Positions 48,947 through 54,369 of a stretch of DNA of 64,000 nucleotides are shown in pieces. How positions within the stretch are numbered: position 1 is the stretch's first letter; every line of letters starts with the position of its first letter. The notes below the pieces were generated by a model. The model was not told the DNA's origin. It made no database searches and was given only the letters and a program-made list of their open reading frames with translations. The translations under genes were made by a program, and so were the position numbers. The stretch is from an uncultured Armatimonadetes bacterium (lineage in GTDB: Bacteria; Armatimonadota; Hebobacteria; Hebobacterales; Hebobacteraceae): positions 2,720,001 through 2,784,000 of the forward strand of contig OY970296.1 in NCBI GenBank assembly GCA_963716175.1. The letters run 5' to 3'.

Positions 48947-49972
48947 TCATGCCGGCTCCTCGCGCTTGCCACTCTGCGAAGCAGTCGGACTCCGCGGCCT
49001 GGCACGAGCTCGCTGCACCAGCTCGAAGAACGCGTCCTCCAGGCCGGGCGCCATCCGGCTGACGGCCGTGACCTGGACGCCAGCCTGTCGCAGCGTCTCC
49101 CGCAGCGGCTCCTCAATGTGGGCGGCAGAAGGAGCCGCAACATGGACCCGGTCGCCGAATATCTCCGCCCATGTGACACCGGCCGCTCCCCGCGCCGCCG
49201 CCTGGGCTGGCAGGAGCTGCCGCTGCTGCCCAACGCGGACCTCGAGCAACTCCAGGCCGGCCCGCTGGCGCACCTGCTCGGGCGTCCCTCCGGCCAACAG
49301 CCGTCCTTCGTAGATCAGCCCCACCTGCGCGCACCGCTCCGCCTCGTCCATGTATGGGGTGCTGGTGAGAATGGCGATGCCCTGGTTTGCCAGGCCTAGC
49401 AGCAGCTCCCAGAACTCAGCCCGGGACACTGGGTCAACTCCGGTAGTGGGCTCATCCAGCAGCAGCACCTCCGGCTCGTGAATCAAGGTACAAGCTAGCG
49501 CCAGCTTCTGCCTCATGCCGCCAGAGAGATCGCGGGTGAGCCGGCCCTTGAACCTCCCCAGGCGACTGAAGATGAGCAGCCGCTCTCGCCGCGCTGCAAA
49601 GGTCTCGCCCTTGACGCCGTGCACACGGGCCTGAAACAGGAGGTTCTCCTCGACGGTCAACTCGCCGTAGAGGCTGGATCGCTGAGGCACGTAGCCGAGG
49701 CGGCGCTTCGCTTCCTCTCCCTGCGTCACCACATCGAAGCCGGCCACCCGCGCGGCTCCGCTGTCCGGCGGCATGGCACCGCAGAGGAGGCGGATGGTGG
49801 TGGTCTTGCCCGCGCCGTCCGGCCCCACCAGGCCGAAGATCTCGCCGGGCGCGACAGTGAGATCGAGGCCGTCCACGGCTGTCACCGGGCCGAAGTGCTT
49901 GCGCAGGCCCCGCGCTTCAATCGCTGGGGCGGGCAGTGAAGGGCTTGGAGCTTGTGGCGCTAGTGGGGGCAT
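48947..49972 (-). CDS. ABC transporter ATP-binding protein
   Basis: GPDGAGKTT, LSGGMRQKL, DEPTTGVDP. Confidence 0.92.
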   Translation of the reverse strand: MPPLAPQAPSPSLPAPAIEARGLRKHFGPVTAVDGLDLTVAPGEIFGLVGPDGAGKTTTIRLLCGAMPPDSGAARVAGFDVVTQGEEAKRRLGYVPQRSSLYGELTVEENLLFQARVHGVKGETFAARRERLLIFSRLGRFKGRLTRDLSGGMRQKLALACTLIHEPEVLLLDEPTTGVDPVSRAEFWELLLGLANQGIAILTSTPYMDEAERCAQVGLIYEGRLLAGGTPEQVRQRAGLELLEVRVGQQRQLLPAQAAARGAAGVTWAEIFGDRVHVAAPSAAHIEEPLRETLRQAGVQVTAVSRMAPGLEDAFFELVQRARARPRSPTASQSGKREEPA

Positions 49973-49999: not shown

Positions 50000-51316
50000 T
50001 TACCCGCCTCGGGCGGGCTCCGGCCGCACGCTGATGCGGGCGTCCGCGGGCATGCCTGGCTTCAGCTCGTGGTTCGGGTTTTCTACCTCTACCTTGACGC
50101 CGAACACCAGCTTCTCCCGCTGCTCCCGCGTCTGCACGTTCTTGGGCGTGAACTCCGCCTGCTGCGCGATCTCCGTCACCCGGCCCCGGTAGGCCTTGCC
50201 CGGGTTGGCGTCGGCTCTCACCTCAGCCTTCTGCCCCAGCTTCACCCGGTCCAACTGGGTCACTGGGACGTAGACTCGCAGCCACATGTGGTCGAGATCG
50301 GCGAGCCGGACTATCGCCTGGTTAGGCGCCACGGTTTCGCCTGCCTCCCGGACCTTGATGGTCACAGCGCCATCGAGGGGAGAGGTCACCTTCGCATCGC
50401 GCAGTCGTTTCTCGGCCGCAGCCAGCCCCCCCCTCGCGTTCTCGACCTGCCCCGCGGCCGCAACTTGCGCCTGCTGGGCGGCGCGCTGCTGCGCCCCCGC
50501 GGCATCGAGCTGCTGCTTCAGGGCCAGCTTATCGGCATACAGCTCCTGGGCGGTGGCGAGTGAGCGCGCGGCCGCCTCGGCATTTGCCTGCGCCTGGGCG
50601 AACCCGGCCTCGGCCTGCCTTCTCTCCTGGCTCCTCGCGCCCGCCTCCGCCTCGGCCAACCGCGCCCGGGCCGCCTCCAGAGCGGCCTTCGCGGCGTCCC
50701 GCGCAGTCCTTTGCAGATCCGCCTGCTGTTGCGACACCGCGCCCTGGGCCAGCAGCTTCTCCAATCGCTCCAGCTCCCGCTGCGCGTTCTCGGAGTTCGC
50801 CTGCGCGCTCGCCACTGCCGCCCGCGCCTGCTCTATCTCCTCCGATCGCACCCCTGCCCGCACCAGGTCGAGGGCCGCCTTCGCCTGATCGCGCGCGGCT
50901 ATCGCCGCCTGATGGCGCGCCCGGGCGGTCTCGAACCCGCCCTTCAGCTCTGTGCTCTTGGTATAGGCTTCCCCCGCGTTGGCCGCGGCCAGCCGGGCCC
51001 CGGCCAGCACGGCCTCTGCCTGCGCCAGTTGCCCCTTCGCCGCCGCCAGCGCGCCCCGCGCCTGCGTCACCTGGGGTTCCACGTCCCTGCGGTCTATCTC
51101 CGCCACCAGCTCCCCTCGCTTCACCCAATCGCCTTCGTCCACCAGCAGCCGCGCCAGCTTGCCGCCGCTGAGGGAGCTCACATCCACCTCGGTCGCCTCC
51201 ATCACCCCGCTGGCCTCGATCCAACCTGTGGGCCTCGGGGGCCGATGGGCGACCAGGTAGCCGGCGATCGCCACCAATGCAAGCAGCCCCGCCACCAGGC
51301 CGATCCGCCGCTTCAT
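50000..51316 (-). CDS. HlyD/YbhG-like periplasmic adaptor
   Basis: N-terminal TM, long coiled coil, AEFTPKNVQT, LKPGMPAD. Confidence 0.9.
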   Translation of the reverse strand: MKRRIGLVAGLLALVAIAGYLVAHRPPRPTGWIEASGVMEATEVDVSSLSGGKLARLLVDEGDWVKRGELVAEIDRRDVEPQVTQARGALAAAKGQLAQAEAVLAGARLAAANAGEAYTKSTELKGGFETARARHQAAIAARDQAKAALDLVRAGVRSEEIEQARAAVASAQANSENAQRELERLEKLLAQGAVSQQQADLQRTARDAAKAALEAARARLAEAEAGARSQERRQAEAGFAQAQANAEAAARSLATAQELYADKLALKQQLDAAGAQQRAAQQAQVAAAGQVENARGGLAAAEKRLRDAKVTSPLDGAVTIKVREAGETVAPNQAIVRLADLDHMWLRVYVPVTQLDRVKLGQKAEVRADANPGKAYRGRVTEIAQQAEFTPKNVQTREQREKLVFGVKVEVENPNHELKPGMPADARISVRPEPARGG

Positions 51317-51461
51317 GTTTCCGCTTTCTCGCCTGCCCGCCTGAGACAGGCAAGGTTGCCACTTCAACCTCGGGCGCGCCACTACCTGTTGGCGGCGAGT
51401 CGCCTCGGCGACTGGACTCCTACACGGCGGTAGGCCGGCAGCCACCTTCGCCTTTACATTC

Positions 51462-51490
51462 TTGACACGTCCCATGCCAGCGGTTATGCT
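51462..51490 (+). promoter_or_regulatory. Sigma70 promoter
   Basis: TTGACA-N17-TATGCT. Confidence 0.8.
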
Positions 51491-51496
51491 GGGTGT

Positions 51497-51680
51497 GGAA
51501 TACTAAGGGCGATGGACACGTCGTCACGTAACCAGGCAGGGACCAAGGCCAATCCGGCGCAACGTAGACTCAGCCGGTTCGGCCAGCCGCGTGTGCGCGG
51601 AGCGGCTTTAGGGCGCGCGGGGCCGGCATAGGCCCGCGGCGAGCCCTGTCAAAGCCTTCCCTGTCCGGGAAGGCTTTTTT
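51497..51680 (+). ncRNA. Candidate cis-regulatory leader RNA (riboswitch/attenuator)
   Basis: Four hairpins between promoter and terminator; 51535..51549 is complementary to the terminator 5' arm and loop. Confidence 0.6.
51651..51680 (+). terminator. Intrinsic terminator inside the 5' leader
   Basis: AAAGCCTTCCC-TGTCC-GGGAAGGCTTTTTT. Confidence 0.85.
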
Positions 51681-51828
51681 GTTGGTGGTTAGGCCTGCGG
51701 CCGCCGTGGTCCCTAGGCCTGAAGCCGGGATGGCGGCCTGCGAAGCAGGCCTAGCCACGGTCGGCTCTGCCGACCTAGCCGCCGGGCGGCGTGGCGCATT
51801 GACCGGGGCGAAGCCGAGGAGATAGGGG

Positions 51829-53106
51829 ATGATCTTTTTCGCGGAGGCCTATCTGAGTGATCTGATGCGCATGAATGTGCTGGACCGCGACGGCGCTGTG
51901 GTCGGCCGGCTGCGGGATGTGGCGGTGCGGCTGGGTGAAGCCTTCCCTCCGGTGACCAAGCTCGTCCTCCGCCGCCGCGGCCAGCGCCAGCCCTTGGTCA
52001 TCCCTTGGGACGCAGTGCGCAGTGTCTCCGCTGAGTCCATCACTCTGCTCCACCGTAGCAGCGAGCTTCGCTCCGTGCAACTGGAACCCGAAGACACGCT
52101 GCTCGGGGCGTCCCTGCTGGATCGCCAGATTGTGGACGTGCAGGGCCGGCGCGTGGTCCGGGTGAACGACCTGAAGCTGGGGTCTGTGCAAGGGCAGGTG
52201 CGGCTGGTGGCGGCCGGGGTAGGGACGCGCAGCCTGCTGCGCCGCCTCAATCTGGAGGGCCTGGCGCTGCGGGTGTGGAGCTGGTTTGGCCGGCGCCTAC
52301 ACGAGCATCTCATCAGTTGGGAGCACGTGCACGCGGTGGAGCCCGCCTCCCAACAGCTGCAGCTCGGACTGGAGCAGGAGAAGCTCCAGCGCCTGAATCC
52401 CGCCGACTTGGCCGACATCCTGGGCGAACTCAGCACCAGCGATCGCGCGGCGGTGGTGTCCTCGCTAGATGAGGAGACCGCCGCGGCGGCGATGGAAGAG
52501 ATGGACTTCGATCTCCAGAAGTCAGTGCTCGACTCGGTAGAGGACGAAAGGGCGGCCGACATCCTGGAGGAGATCGCCCCGGACGCCGCGGCCGACCTGA
52601 TGGGCGATCTGCCCAGGGAACGGGCCGACGAGCTGCTCAGCCTGATGGAGCCGGAGGAGGCCTCGGACGTCAAGGAGCTGCTCAAATACCCGGAGGAATC
52701 GGCCGGCGGGCTCATGACCATGGACTACGTGACCGTCCCAGCCGGGATCACCGCCCAGGAGGCAATCGAGCATCTGCGGAGGGTGGGGGAAGAGGCCGAG
52801 ACCATCTACTACTGCTATGTCGTGAAGGATGGCAATCGCCTGGTGGGCGTGCTCTCCTTGCGCGACCTTATCGTGGCCCCGCCCGACCAGCGGATTGACG
52901 ATATCATGGCGAGGGACGTGATCTCGGTGCAGCCCCTCACCCCCCAGGAGGAGACCGCCCGCTTCATCTCCCGGTACAATCTGCTGGCCATCCCGGTCGT
53001 GGATGACGATCAGCAGTTGCTGGGCATTGTCACCGTGGATGACGCCATCGACGCGGTGCTGCCCACGCGGTGGAAGAAGCGGCTGCCCAAAGTGTTCTCC
53101 AGCTGA
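51829..53106 (+). CDS. MgtE-like cytoplasmic protein (PRC-barrel + MgtE_N + CBS pair, no TM domain)
   Basis: PADLADIL, APDAAADL, YPEESAGGLMT, YNLLAIPVVD...GIVTVDD. Confidence 0.88.
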   Translation: MIFFAEAYLSDLMRMNVLDRDGAVVGRLRDVAVRLGEAFPPVTKLVLRRRGQRQPLVIPWDAVRSVSAESITLLHRSSELRSVQLEPEDTLLGASLLDRQIVDVQGRRVVRVNDLKLGSVQGQVRLVAAGVGTRSLLRRLNLEGLALRVWSWFGRRLHEHLISWEHVHAVEPASQQLQLGLEQEKLQRLNPADLADILGELSTSDRAAVVSSLDEETAAAAMEEMDFDLQKSVLDSVEDERAADILEEIAPDAAADLMGDLPRERADELLSLMEPEEASDVKELLKYPEESAGGLMTMDYVTVPAGITAQEAIEHLRRVGEEAETIYYCYVVKDGNRLVGVLSLRDLIVAPPDQRIDDIMARDVISVQPLTPQEETARFISRYNLLAIPVVDDDQQLLGIVTVDDAIDAVLPTRWKKRLPKVFSS

Positions 53107-53124: not shown

Positions 53125-54369
53125 GTGTTCCAGCTTCTCCGCAGGCGCCTACTGCTCCCCATCTTCGCCTTCTTCTCCGTGGTGGGCCCGGCCTTCATCA
53201 CGGCCAATGTGGACAATGACGCGCCCGGCATCGCCACCTACTCGGTGGCCGGTGCCCACTTCGGCTACACCCTGCTCTGGCTGCTCTGGCCCACCCTGGT
53301 TATGCTTATCGTGGTCCAGGAGATCTGCGCCCGCATGGGAGTGGCCACCACCAAGGGCCTCGCCGACCTGATCCGGGAGGAGTTCGGCGTCAAAGTCACG
53401 CTGGTGCTGATGGCGGCGCTGCTGGTCACCAACCTGGCCAACACCGCGGGGGAATTCGCCGGTTTGGCTGCGGGCGCTCGCATCTTCGGGCTCCCCCCCT
53501 ACCTCTCTGTGCCCGTTGGGGCCTTTCTCATCTGGCTGCTAGTGGTGCGCGGCAGCTACAGCAGCGTCGAGCGCATCTTCCTCGCCGCCTGCCTGGTCTA
53601 CATGGCCTATCCCATCTCCGGGATTCTGGCTCATCCGGACTGGGAGTACGTGCTCAAGCAATCCCTGGTGCCGCGGCTGACGCCCGATCTGCCCACAGTG
53701 ACCATGGCGATGGGGATCGTGGGCACCACCATCGCGCCCTGGATGCAGTTCTACCTACAGGCTGCCGTGGTCGAGAAGGGAACTCCCGCCGGCCGCTACC
53801 AGCTCGCCAAGTGGGACGTGATCATCGGCGGCATCTTTGCCATCATCGTCGTCTTCTTCATCACCGTCGCCTGCGCCGCCACCATTCACCCCAGGGGCAT
53901 CCACATCACTGATGCCGCCCAGGCCGCCGCCGCCCTCCGGCCCCTGGCCGGGCGCTATGCCTCCGCCCTCTTCGCCGTCGGGCTGCTCAACGCCGCGCTG
54001 TTCGCCGCCTCCATCCTGCCGCTGAGCACGGCCTACAGCGTGTGCGAGGGCATTGGCTGGGAGCGGGGGGTGAACCGGCCCTTCCGCAGCGCCCCTCAGT
54101 TCTACCTCCTTTACACCGGCCTCATCGTGGTCGGCGGAGGCATCGTGCTCCTGCCCGGCGCCCCGCTGCTTCGGATCATGCTGATCTCCCAGGTGATGAA
54201 CGGAGTGCTGCTGCCGGTTATCTTGGTCCTGATGCTGCTGCTGGCTACTCGCCGGCGCTTGATGGGAAAGCTGGCGCTCTCCCACGGCTACGCTGGTTTC
54301 TGCTGGGTGCTGGCGTTCCTGCTGATCGCGCTAGACCTGTTCTTACTGGTAACCGCTTTCATGGGCTGA
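53125..54369 (+). CDS. NRAMP-family divalent metal transporter (NRMT-like)
   Basis: GPAFITANVDNDAPGIATY, QEICARMG, GTTIAPWMQF, SQVMNG. Confidence 0.88.
   Translation: MFQLLRRRLLLPIFAFFSVVGPAFITANVDNDAPGIATYSVAGAHFGYTLLWLLWPTLVMLIVVQEICARMGVATTKGLADLIREEFGVKVTLVLMAALLVTNLANTAGEFAGLAAGARIFGLPPYLSVPVGAFLIWLLVVRGSYSSVERIFLAACLVYMAYPISGILAHPDWEYVLKQSLVPRLTPDLPTVTMAMGIVGTTIAPWMQFYLQAAVVEKGTPAGRYQLAKWDVIIGGIFAIIVVFFITVACAATIHPRGIHITDAAQAAAALRPLAGRYASALFAVGLLNAALFAASILPLSTAYSVCEGIGWERGVNRPFRSAPQFYLLYTGLIVVGGGIVLLPGAPLLRIMLISQVMNGVLLPVILVLMLLLATRRRLMGKLALSHGYAGFCWVLAFLLIALDLFLLVTAFMG

Follow-up and report, generated by a model that had tools for sequence, protein, structure and literature searches.

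A conserved upstream open reading frame overlapping a predicted antiterminator suggests ribosome-dependent attenuation of a probable Mg2+-uptake operon in an uncultured Armatimonadetes bacterium

Analysis of a 64,000-nt stretch of DNA from an uncultured Armatimonadetes bacterium (contig OY970296.1, positions 2,720,001 to 2,784,000; the whole stretch is called the window here) revealed a conserved leader region upstream of an operon that encodes an MgtE_N/CBS protein and an NRAMP-family transporter. The first-pass annotation of this DNA had presented the leader as an undescribed cation-sensing riboswitch and had named a short upstream open reading frame (uORF) as a fallback mechanism. The riboswitch was not retained as the principal interpretation because no conserved aptamer was found and because the best-conserved part of the leader is a reading frame under selection at the amino acid level. 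Instead, the leader probably attenuates transcription of an NRMT-type Mg2+-uptake operon in a ribosome-dependent manner, by means of a leader peptide. Two characteristics of such an attenuator were found in the window, namely, a leader ORF with a conserved start, a conserved frame, and a coding signature and an intrinsic terminator before the first gene. The elements of the leader, in window coordinates, are the following.

51462-51490, plus strand: sigma-70-type promoter, TTGACA-N17-TATGCT, the sole such site in 50800-52400
51497-51511, plus strand: short 5' untranslated region, opening with a GGAATA box that is conserved in the alignment and lacking a canonical Shine-Dalgarno sequence
51512-51631, plus strand: uORF for the leader peptide MDTSSRNQAGTKANPAQRRLSRFGQPRVRGAALGRAGPA, 39 codons plus TAG, conserved in 23 leaders
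51524-51532, plus strand: codons 5 to 7 (TCA CGT AAC), with nearly invariant wobble positions, part of a frame-locked NGT-A junction motif
51533-51549, plus strand: 5' strand of the antiterminator, CAGGCAGGGACCAAGGC, contained in the uORF (codon 8 into codon 13)
51590-51604, plus strand: codons 27 to 31, R-V-R-G-A (R-[AV]-R-G-P in most relatives), motif conserved and codons varied
51651-51684, plus strand: intrinsic terminator with an 11-bp stem (5' arm 51651-51661, loop TGTCC at 51662-51666, 3' arm 51667-51677) and a T-run

The leader is a single-copy element in its own genome, where an nhmmer search with its 5' part found only the locus itself. In a DNA search of 61 genomes (G000 and 60 relatives), every match was at the orthologous locus except one of 21 nt, which is ascribed to chance. 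Of the 15 genomes that represent the taxonomic family, seven contain an orthologue whose upstream region is intact, and the leader was present in all seven. A metagenome scan with the gene 1 protein yielded 39 loci and 16 further non-redundant leaders. The comparisons of close leaders reported here were made with these 23 leaders (7 from family genomes and 16 from metagenomes). Homologous leaders were conserved and were always located beside the same operon, which bears out the proposal of a conserved cis-regulatory leader. At one locus (L015, genome G011), the orthologous gene matched residues 1 to 239 only, with two in-frame TGA codons and a second piece further on; this gene may be broken or mis-assembled, and its leader is intact.

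The promoter reported in the first-pass annotation, with TTGACA at 51462-51467, a 17-nt spacer, and TATGCT at 51485-51490, was present. One sigma-70-like site was observed in 50800-52400, compared to 0.1 expected from shuffled sequences. The sequence TTGAC[AC]-N16-18-TANNNT occurs upstream of the uORF in 19 of the 23 leaders, and 18 of these 19 have 21 to 30 nt between the -10 box and the ATG. Transcription probably starts near 51497, so that the uORF would begin about 15 nt into the predicted RNA. A search for a downstream promoter, which would have been an alternative source of the operon mRNA, revealed no other promoter-like site between the terminator and gene 1. We consider it extremely unlikely that the terminated transcript of about 190 nt is mainly a trans-acting small RNA whose position before the operon is secondary. 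Promoter and terminator do delimit a discrete structured RNA, and attenuator-derived small RNAs such as rnTrpL are known, but the leader shows strict synteny with one operon, occurs in no other copies, and carries a coding signature.

The uORF itself (ATG at 51512, TAG at 51629-51631, 39 codons) was confirmed. Its length is 39 codons in 14 of the 23 leaders, with a range of 34 to 68. The alignment of the deduced peptides is conserved over residues 1 to 31 and gave the consensus MD[AP]SSRNQAG..[SA][ED]PA[QR]R...R[LF]G..R[AV]RGP. Within the first 34 codons, frame 0 was free of stop codons in all leaders, whereas the two other frames were interrupted in 15 and 22 of them. Conserved residues were encoded by different synonymous codons: S4 by TCG (9 leaders), TCA (4), TCC (3), and TCT (2); R22 by CGG (9), CGA (4), CGC (2), and AGA (1); G24 by GGC (6), GGG (5), and GGA (4); G30 by GGG (14), GGA (4), and GGC (3); and P31 by CCC (9), CCG (9), and CCA (2). 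R27 was retained in all 23 leaders with four codons (CGC in 16, CGT in 4, CGG in 2, and AGG in 1), and the codons of the conserved R29 were likewise varied. The synonymous share among differing codon pairs was 0.234 in frame 0 versus 0.145 and 0.091 in the shifted frames. Nucleotide diversity at codon positions 1, 2, and 3 was 0.368, 0.333, and 0.457, the third position being the most variable. A 33-nt insertion (G011 and L137) and a 3-nt insertion (L155) maintained the frame and left the RGP motif within it. The synonymous variation, the single open frame, and the in-frame insertions together are good evidence, not proof, that the uORF is translated and that the sequence of its product matters.

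Several wobble positions departed from this pattern and were invariant or nearly so: TCA5 (19 of 19), CGT6 (18 of 19), GCA9 (17 of 17), GGG10 (18 of 18), and GCG16 (21 of 21). The invariance of codons 9 and 10 is explained by their location in the antiterminator strand.

The C-terminal third of the peptide is unconstrained in both sequence and length and differs even between members of one genus (G008 compared to G012). The tail that follows the RGP motif comprises 3 to 12 residues, which makes a stall at the stop codon unlikely. The R-x-R-G-P motif is a candidate pause or arrest site. The peptide contains no run of codons for one sensed amino acid; arginine is frequent and scattered. No Pfam match was found for the peptide, and a search with the peptide profile against 1.84 billion protein representatives returned three matches. 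One of them, a repetitive protein of 1,196 amino acids, was considered spurious. In the other two, the ORF had been called too long and includes the peptide; the peptide family is thus effectively unannotated.

Amino acid conservation over about 31 residues could also be due to an independent gene for a basic microprotein of 39 amino acids that acts in trans, perhaps with the transporter or its CBS partner as the target, and with the operon expressed by leaky read-through. The complete promoter-ORF-terminator unit and its constant position next to the same operon fit this explanation, which we nevertheless regard as unlikely. The free C-terminal third argues against it, as does the reduction of the peptide to 17 to 23 residues in distant groups. 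The ORF has neither a Shine-Dalgarno sequence nor any Pfam family match, and a separate promoter for the operon was not seen. An antiterminator strand is embedded in the ORF, whereas a plain gene terminator needs none.

The strong hairpin with a T-run that had been annotated downstream of the uORF was found at that place. About 0.7 such terminator sites are expected by chance, so that the single site in the window is not above chance by itself. In the 23 leaders, however, 95.3% of the cells in the terminator alignment were paired, four pairs were changed on both sides, and none of 500 shuffles reached the score. The distance from the uORF stop codon to the 5' arm of the terminator is 19 nt in the window and 15 to 31 nt in 21 relatives measured.

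The GGCAGGG..AAGGC segment within the uORF is complementary to the 5' arm of the terminator, as the first-pass annotation had also recognized. The predicted duplex of window codons 7 to 15 with the terminator 5' arm and loop had an energy of -19.7 kcal/mol, compared to a mean of -9.1 kcal/mol for shuffled sequences, and none of 200 shuffles was as good. In 20 of the 23 leaders, the same duplex outdid 192 or more of the 200 shuffles; the exceptions were L155, G008, and G012. Minimum free energy (MFE) folds of transcripts cut at the terminator loop showed the 5' arm paired with codons 6 to 15 in 21 of the 23 leaders. Individual leaders gave further examples of matched strands. L140 has GGT and ACC on the two strands where other leaders have GGC and GCC, and in L172 a different terminator is accompanied by an upstream strand changed to match. 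In L155, inspection by eye located a copy of the 3'-arm sequence further down the uORF. The support for the antiterminator is thus conserved complementarity, not covariation statistics. In full-length MFE folds, the terminator was present in 15 leaders and absent in 8, with energy differences of 0.1 to 13.9 kcal/mol; the terminator and antiterminator states are predicted to be near-isoenergetic. The duplex energies and the truncated folds support the proposed pair of mutually exclusive folds. Immediately before the terminator, at 51644-51650, the window has a second copy of CCCTGTC that is absent from the relatives. In the full-length MFE fold of the window leader, the GGCAGGG strand is paired with this copy and the terminator is left intact.

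Two exclusive folds of similar energy would also be expected of a new riboswitch, in which the leader RNA binds Mg2+, another cation, or a metabolite to choose the fold and the open frame is incidental. Whole-leader folding was better than that of shuffled sequences (z -2.40; 5 of 200 shuffles as good), the leader occupies the position that an M-box holds in other lineages, and nucleotides are invariant at some wobble positions, including those of codons 5-6, 9-10, and 16. The comparative data nevertheless make a riboswitch improbable. The local hairpins drawn in the first-pass annotation can be formed in the window, but they are not kept in the consensus structure. RNAalifold analysis of the 23 leaders revealed the terminator, one 3-bp hairpin, and nothing else, and thus no conserved multi-helix aptamer such as a riboswitch generally has. 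The alignment also showed that the region between the antiterminator strand and the terminator accommodates a 33-nt insertion. The coding signature of the uORF is clear. Moreover, the N-terminal part of the uORF, with its M-D/E start and frame-locked GTA, recurs in distant groups with entirely different downstream RNA. Searching the whole window with Rfam 15 gave no match at the gathering score, in agreement with the earlier statement that M-box, yybP-ykoY, NiCo, and fluoride motifs are absent. At E values up to 10, only chance-level matches to unrelated small RNA models appeared in 51200-52000 (E 0.27 to 8.9). Two further structural candidates were rejected. Folding of the window predicts a hairpin that would sequester the uORF AUG, yet this hairpin is not conserved and was no better than shuffles across the 23 leaders. 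Inspection by eye had suggested that codons 5-6 contact codons 17-18 through 4 bp (ACGU/ACGU); no covariation was seen where codon 18 is CGC.

The genes downstream of the leader and the translation signal of the first one are as follows.

51816-51821, plus strand: strong Shine-Dalgarno sequence GAGGAG of gene 1, whose ATG is at 51829
51829-53106, plus strand: gene 1, with a PRC-barrel, an MgtE_N domain, and two CBS domains and without a membrane domain (Pfam)
53125-54369, plus strand: gene 2, an NRAMP-family transporter with an NRMT-type metal site (Pfam and motif)

Reading of the gene 2 translation revealed DAPG (DxxG) and TTIA (TxxA) at the two metal-site positions. The combination DxxG-TxxA/T is described as the signature of the Mg2+-transporting NRMT clade, whereas classical NRAMPs have DxxN-AxxM (Ramanadane et al., PMC8806188). 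A pair consisting of a homologue of the MgtE cytoplasmic domain and NrmT has been described as a Mg2+ transport operon that is controlled by an M-box in some cases (Shin et al. 2014, PMC4072509). The window operon has both the metal-site motif and the neighboring gene with an MgtE N-terminal cytoplasmic domain, and it is probably an NRMT-type Mg2+-uptake operon. The organism's own genome contains one CorA. An MgtE channel domain was not found in this genome, nor was an M-box in a search with the Rfam model, and no uORF resembling that of the leader was seen before its corA.

Known controls of Mg2+ import include the M-box riboswitch in Firmicutes and, in enterobacteria, the leader ORF mgtL. 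An Rfam scan of orthologous loci, which covered 60 of 80 loci, revealed an M-box upstream of the orthologous gene in five of the 60, all from other lineages (L081, L089, L093, L102, and L112). One of them combines both kinds of leader: in L081:270-790, the order is an M-box (270-459) and its terminator, an MD-type uORF starting at 589, a second terminator, and the orthologous gene. This tandem arrangement indicates that the M-box and the uORF leader are separate modules. Because of the gene content of the operon and the M-box at the same position in other lineages, Mg2+ status appears to be the most likely signal. The earlier proposal that Mg2+ or another cation is sensed is therefore reasonable as a guess with respect to Mg2+, and it is unsupported with respect to sensing by an RNA aptamer.

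In the MgtL mechanism, an N-terminal stretch rich in D/E and P destabilizes the ribosome at low Mg2+, and peptides of this type are recognized by more than three D/E/P residues in a 10-residue N-terminal window, such as EPDP in MgtL (10.1101/2021.02.02.429294). Some distant leaders show this composition by our own count, for example MDDSQPHSTEE with 5 of 10. Control of a Mg2+ importer, which is a further property of MgtL-type leaders, probably applies to the window leader, judging from the NRMT signature and the MgtE cytoplasmic domains. The general logic of the MgtL-style uORF offered earlier as a fallback is thus better supported than the riboswitch, while the peptide does not have the published DE/P composition.

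The domains of gene 1 bear on another explanation, in which a Mg2+-responsive factor, perhaps the PRC-barrel/MgtE_N/CBS protein of the operon itself, binds the conserved 5' leader and prevents the antiterminator from forming. Conservation is highest in the first 50 nt of the RNA, including the non-coding GGAATA box, the gene 1 protein combines domains of a Mg2+-sensing type with a PRC barrel, and some invariant wobble positions are otherwise unexplained. We consider such protein-mediated attenuation very unlikely. It leaves the coding signature unexplained, and the same gene is found in lineages with M-box leaders or without a comparable leader. No evidence was found for RNA binding by this protein family, which is treated as a transporter accessory by Shin et al. 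(PMC4072509).

In the leader-peptide attenuator that we propose, transcription would start at the conserved promoter and the uORF would be translated early in the leader. During normal translation, a ribosome would occupy the antiterminator strand, or the stretch between this strand and the terminator, at the time when RNA polymerase transcribes the latter. With the antiterminator strand blocked by the ribosome, the terminator hairpin would form and the operon would be off. Early failure of uORF translation, through poor initiation, abortion, or an early stall, would leave naked RNA that forms the antiterminator before the 3' arm of the terminator emerges. RNA polymerase would then read through, and the transporter genes would be expressed. 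Cellular Mg2+ status would act on the translating ribosome. The missing Shine-Dalgarno sequence and the conserved early codons might make uORF translation sensitive to ribosome or Mg2+ status. The conserved peptide motifs might tune ribosome progress or pausing, and R-x-R-G-P may park the ribosome within the leader.

Several observations weigh against this attenuator. Mg2+ enters it as a signal only through gene content and analogy. The published MgtL-type definition requires more than three D/E/P residues; the window peptide has one in residues 2 to 11, and only 3 of the 23 close leaders have more than three. Most leaders show no recognizable Shine-Dalgarno sequence before the uORF, in contrast to the strong one of the downstream gene. 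The invariant wobble positions of TCA5, CGT6, and GCG16 are without explanation, and the amino acid conservation through residue 31 exceeds what an attenuator that merely registers translation would need. In leader L147, no stop codon precedes the terminator, and the uORF runs through it for 68 codons. The pairing evidence also has exceptions: in the truncated folds, the terminator arm of L155 and L154 was unpaired with codons 6 to 15, and the duplex of G008 and G012 with the terminator arm is weak. In the covariation test of the antiterminator on fixed columns, 85.5% of the cells were paired, but 94 to 95 of 500 shuffles did as well in covariation score and in percentage paired, so that the result was not significant; this weakness is attributed to both strands being too conserved for the test to discriminate.

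Orthologues outside the close group revealed a wider set of uORF leaders. At 46 to 51% identity, orthologues from other families of the same phylum are preceded by a uORF of 23 to 40 codons and then a terminator. Some sister-family orthologues at about 40% identity are preceded by a uORF of 17 to 21 codons without a terminator. The distant uORFs share an M-D/E start, an N-terminal part rich in serine, acidic residues, and proline, and a later x-R-R. A strict uORF detector was positive at 19 of 27 close metagenome loci versus 0 of 27 on the reverse complement, and at 10 of 77 distant orthologues from many phyla versus 3 of 77 on the reverse complement.

The GTA trinucleotide was found almost exclusively in one codon phase. 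Across 28 leaders, 29 occurrences were in phase 1, none in phase 0, and one in phase 2, at codon numbers from 4 to 12; these leaders were picked by eye and with a pattern requiring a D/E codon, which biases the D/E count and leaves the phase result unaffected. The trinucleotide spans the codon boundary as NGT-A (51527-51530 in the window), and the encoded residues vary (S-T, R-N, S-N, R-R, and G-R). It is replaced in L139 (CAA AAT), L147 (CGG AAT), L154 (TCT AGC), and L161 (GAT AAA). NGT-A is a nucleotide-level constraint that is locked to the reading frame.

Truncated folds of the distant terminator-type leaders showed the terminator arm paired inside the uORF (codons 21 to 34) in six of the nine scored and partly in G042. 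The terminator finder reported none for G055 and G249, although hairpins and T-runs are visible there by eye. In the sister family (f3), a hairpin between an anti-Shine-Dalgarno (anti-SD) sequence and the Shine-Dalgarno sequence was predicted in six of six leaders. The MFE structure was unchanged when the uORF was masked, except in G216, where the number of paired Shine-Dalgarno nucleotides rose from 2 of 11 to 8 of 11. Since the folds, that of G216 apart, did not switch with the uORF masked, a design based on Shine-Dalgarno sequestration is only suggested. The sister-family leaders L022, L024, L025, L027, L028, and L029 have a uORF with a G-rich 3' end, a CCACC anti-SD, and a GGTGG Shine-Dalgarno sequence; the G-rich end could possibly compete for the anti-SD in a three-part translational switch. 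A different short leader precedes the orthologues of L041, L043, L045, L046, L047, L049, and L170, in which a strong promoter is directly followed by a small hairpin and a T-run (for example, GGGCCTTCTAAGG..CTTAGAGGGCCC TTATTTTTT). These short hairpin leaders may be another type of attenuator for the same operon.

A bolder reading of the wider set, which we put forward tentatively and consider less likely than not, is that the peptide is the first member of an undescribed family of nascent peptides that act as sensors. The ribosome, not an aptamer, would read Mg2+ or another condition through an N-terminal module (the M-D/E start and the frame-locked NGU-A junction) and the R-x-R-G-P pause motif. 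The outputs would be interchangeable: the window leader would use an intrinsic terminator, and the sister family would use sequestration of the Shine-Dalgarno sequence. Such peptides would occur in several families of the phylum and also in a few genomes labelled Chloroflexota, in some cases in tandem with an M-box. If this is true, it would represent a second ribosome-based sensor of Mg2+, independent of MgtL in its evolution and with sequence rules unlike those of MgtL.

The attenuator proposed here was compared with known systems. It resembles the mgtL leader of mgtA in Salmonella and E. coli, in which a short leader ORF precedes a Mg2+ importer, translation chooses between RNA folds or premature termination, and low Mg2+ is proposed to act via the translating ribosome (10.1101/2021.02.02.429294). 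MgtL has the DE/P-rich EPDP near its N terminus, whereas the window peptide is poor in these residues there, comprises 39 amino acids, and has motifs conserved to residue 31. The two systems also differ in phylum and transporter family. The window leader ends in an intrinsic hairpin and T-run, whereas termination in the mgtA leader uses Rho.

The trp, his, leu, and phe leader-peptide attenuators share with the window leader the series of promoter, leader ORF, antiterminator/terminator alternatives (predicted for the window leader), and intrinsic terminator before the operon, as well as a stop codon at a short fixed distance (15 to 31 nt in the window-type leaders) from the terminator. The window peptide differs in that it lacks a run of codons for the regulatory amino acid and is itself under sequence selection. 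Its antiterminator strand is inside the ORF, not downstream of it, and the genes controlled encode a metal transporter instead of a biosynthetic pathway. The SecM, TnaC, and SpeFL arrest peptides are similar in the amino acid conservation over approximately the length of the exit tunnel, in an Arg/Gly/Pro motif, and in control via RNA refolding, which is predicted for the window leader. In the window peptide, by contrast, the pause is only a candidate and the tail after RGP is variable.

The M-box (ykoK, RF00380) controls orthologous operons of an MgtE-domain gene and NrmT, likewise by transcription termination (PMC4072509). Neither the window nor the organism's own genome gave a match to RF00380, and the window leader has no conserved aptamer. 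The leader of a Mg2+-stress operon of Mycobacterium tuberculosis also contains a conserved small uORF, rv1805A, which is described as a regulated target of an M-box (PMC12810186). The window uORF differs from it in having no M-box and in overlapping an antiterminator. In the literature searched, which did not extend to subscription journals and supplements, no description was found of a leader peptide for NrmT/NRMT operons or of the regulation of NRAMP-related Mg2+ transporters in lineages without an M-box.

The region between the leader and gene 1 contains an additional element.

51695-51775, strand not assigned: dispersed short repeat insert of 81 nt between the terminator and gene 1, outside the switch

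The repeat has palindromic CCTAGGCC/GGCCTAG ends and gave 30 blastn-short matches in the organism's own genome. In the contigs of four metagenome runs, its depth reached about 2,000 compared to about 6 in the flanks, and only three strain variants were found within the leader. The spacer from the terminator to the ATG of gene 1 is 151 nt in the window versus 36 to 87 nt in six relatives measured; its unusual length in this genome is due to insertion of the repeat. On the other side of the leader, a divergent HlyD-family membrane-fusion gene occupies 50000-51475 on the minus strand and is followed by an ABC ATPase gene at 48947-49972. The start of the longest ORF of the HlyD-family gene would overlap the leader promoter, and its true start is probably further in.

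These results characterize the leader as a probable leader-peptide attenuator, some features of which are unexplained and might take it beyond this class. They also illustrate that a riboswitch-like leader judged on structure alone can conceal a uORF that is probably translated. With a conserved peptide, an antiterminator located in the reading frame, and a strong terminator, the leader is a compact, defined, and testable candidate. If the peptide is a ribosome-borne sensor, it would represent a new family of arrest or abort peptides and would provide a tool-sized switch, responsive to Mg2+ or to translation status, from a poorly studied phylum.

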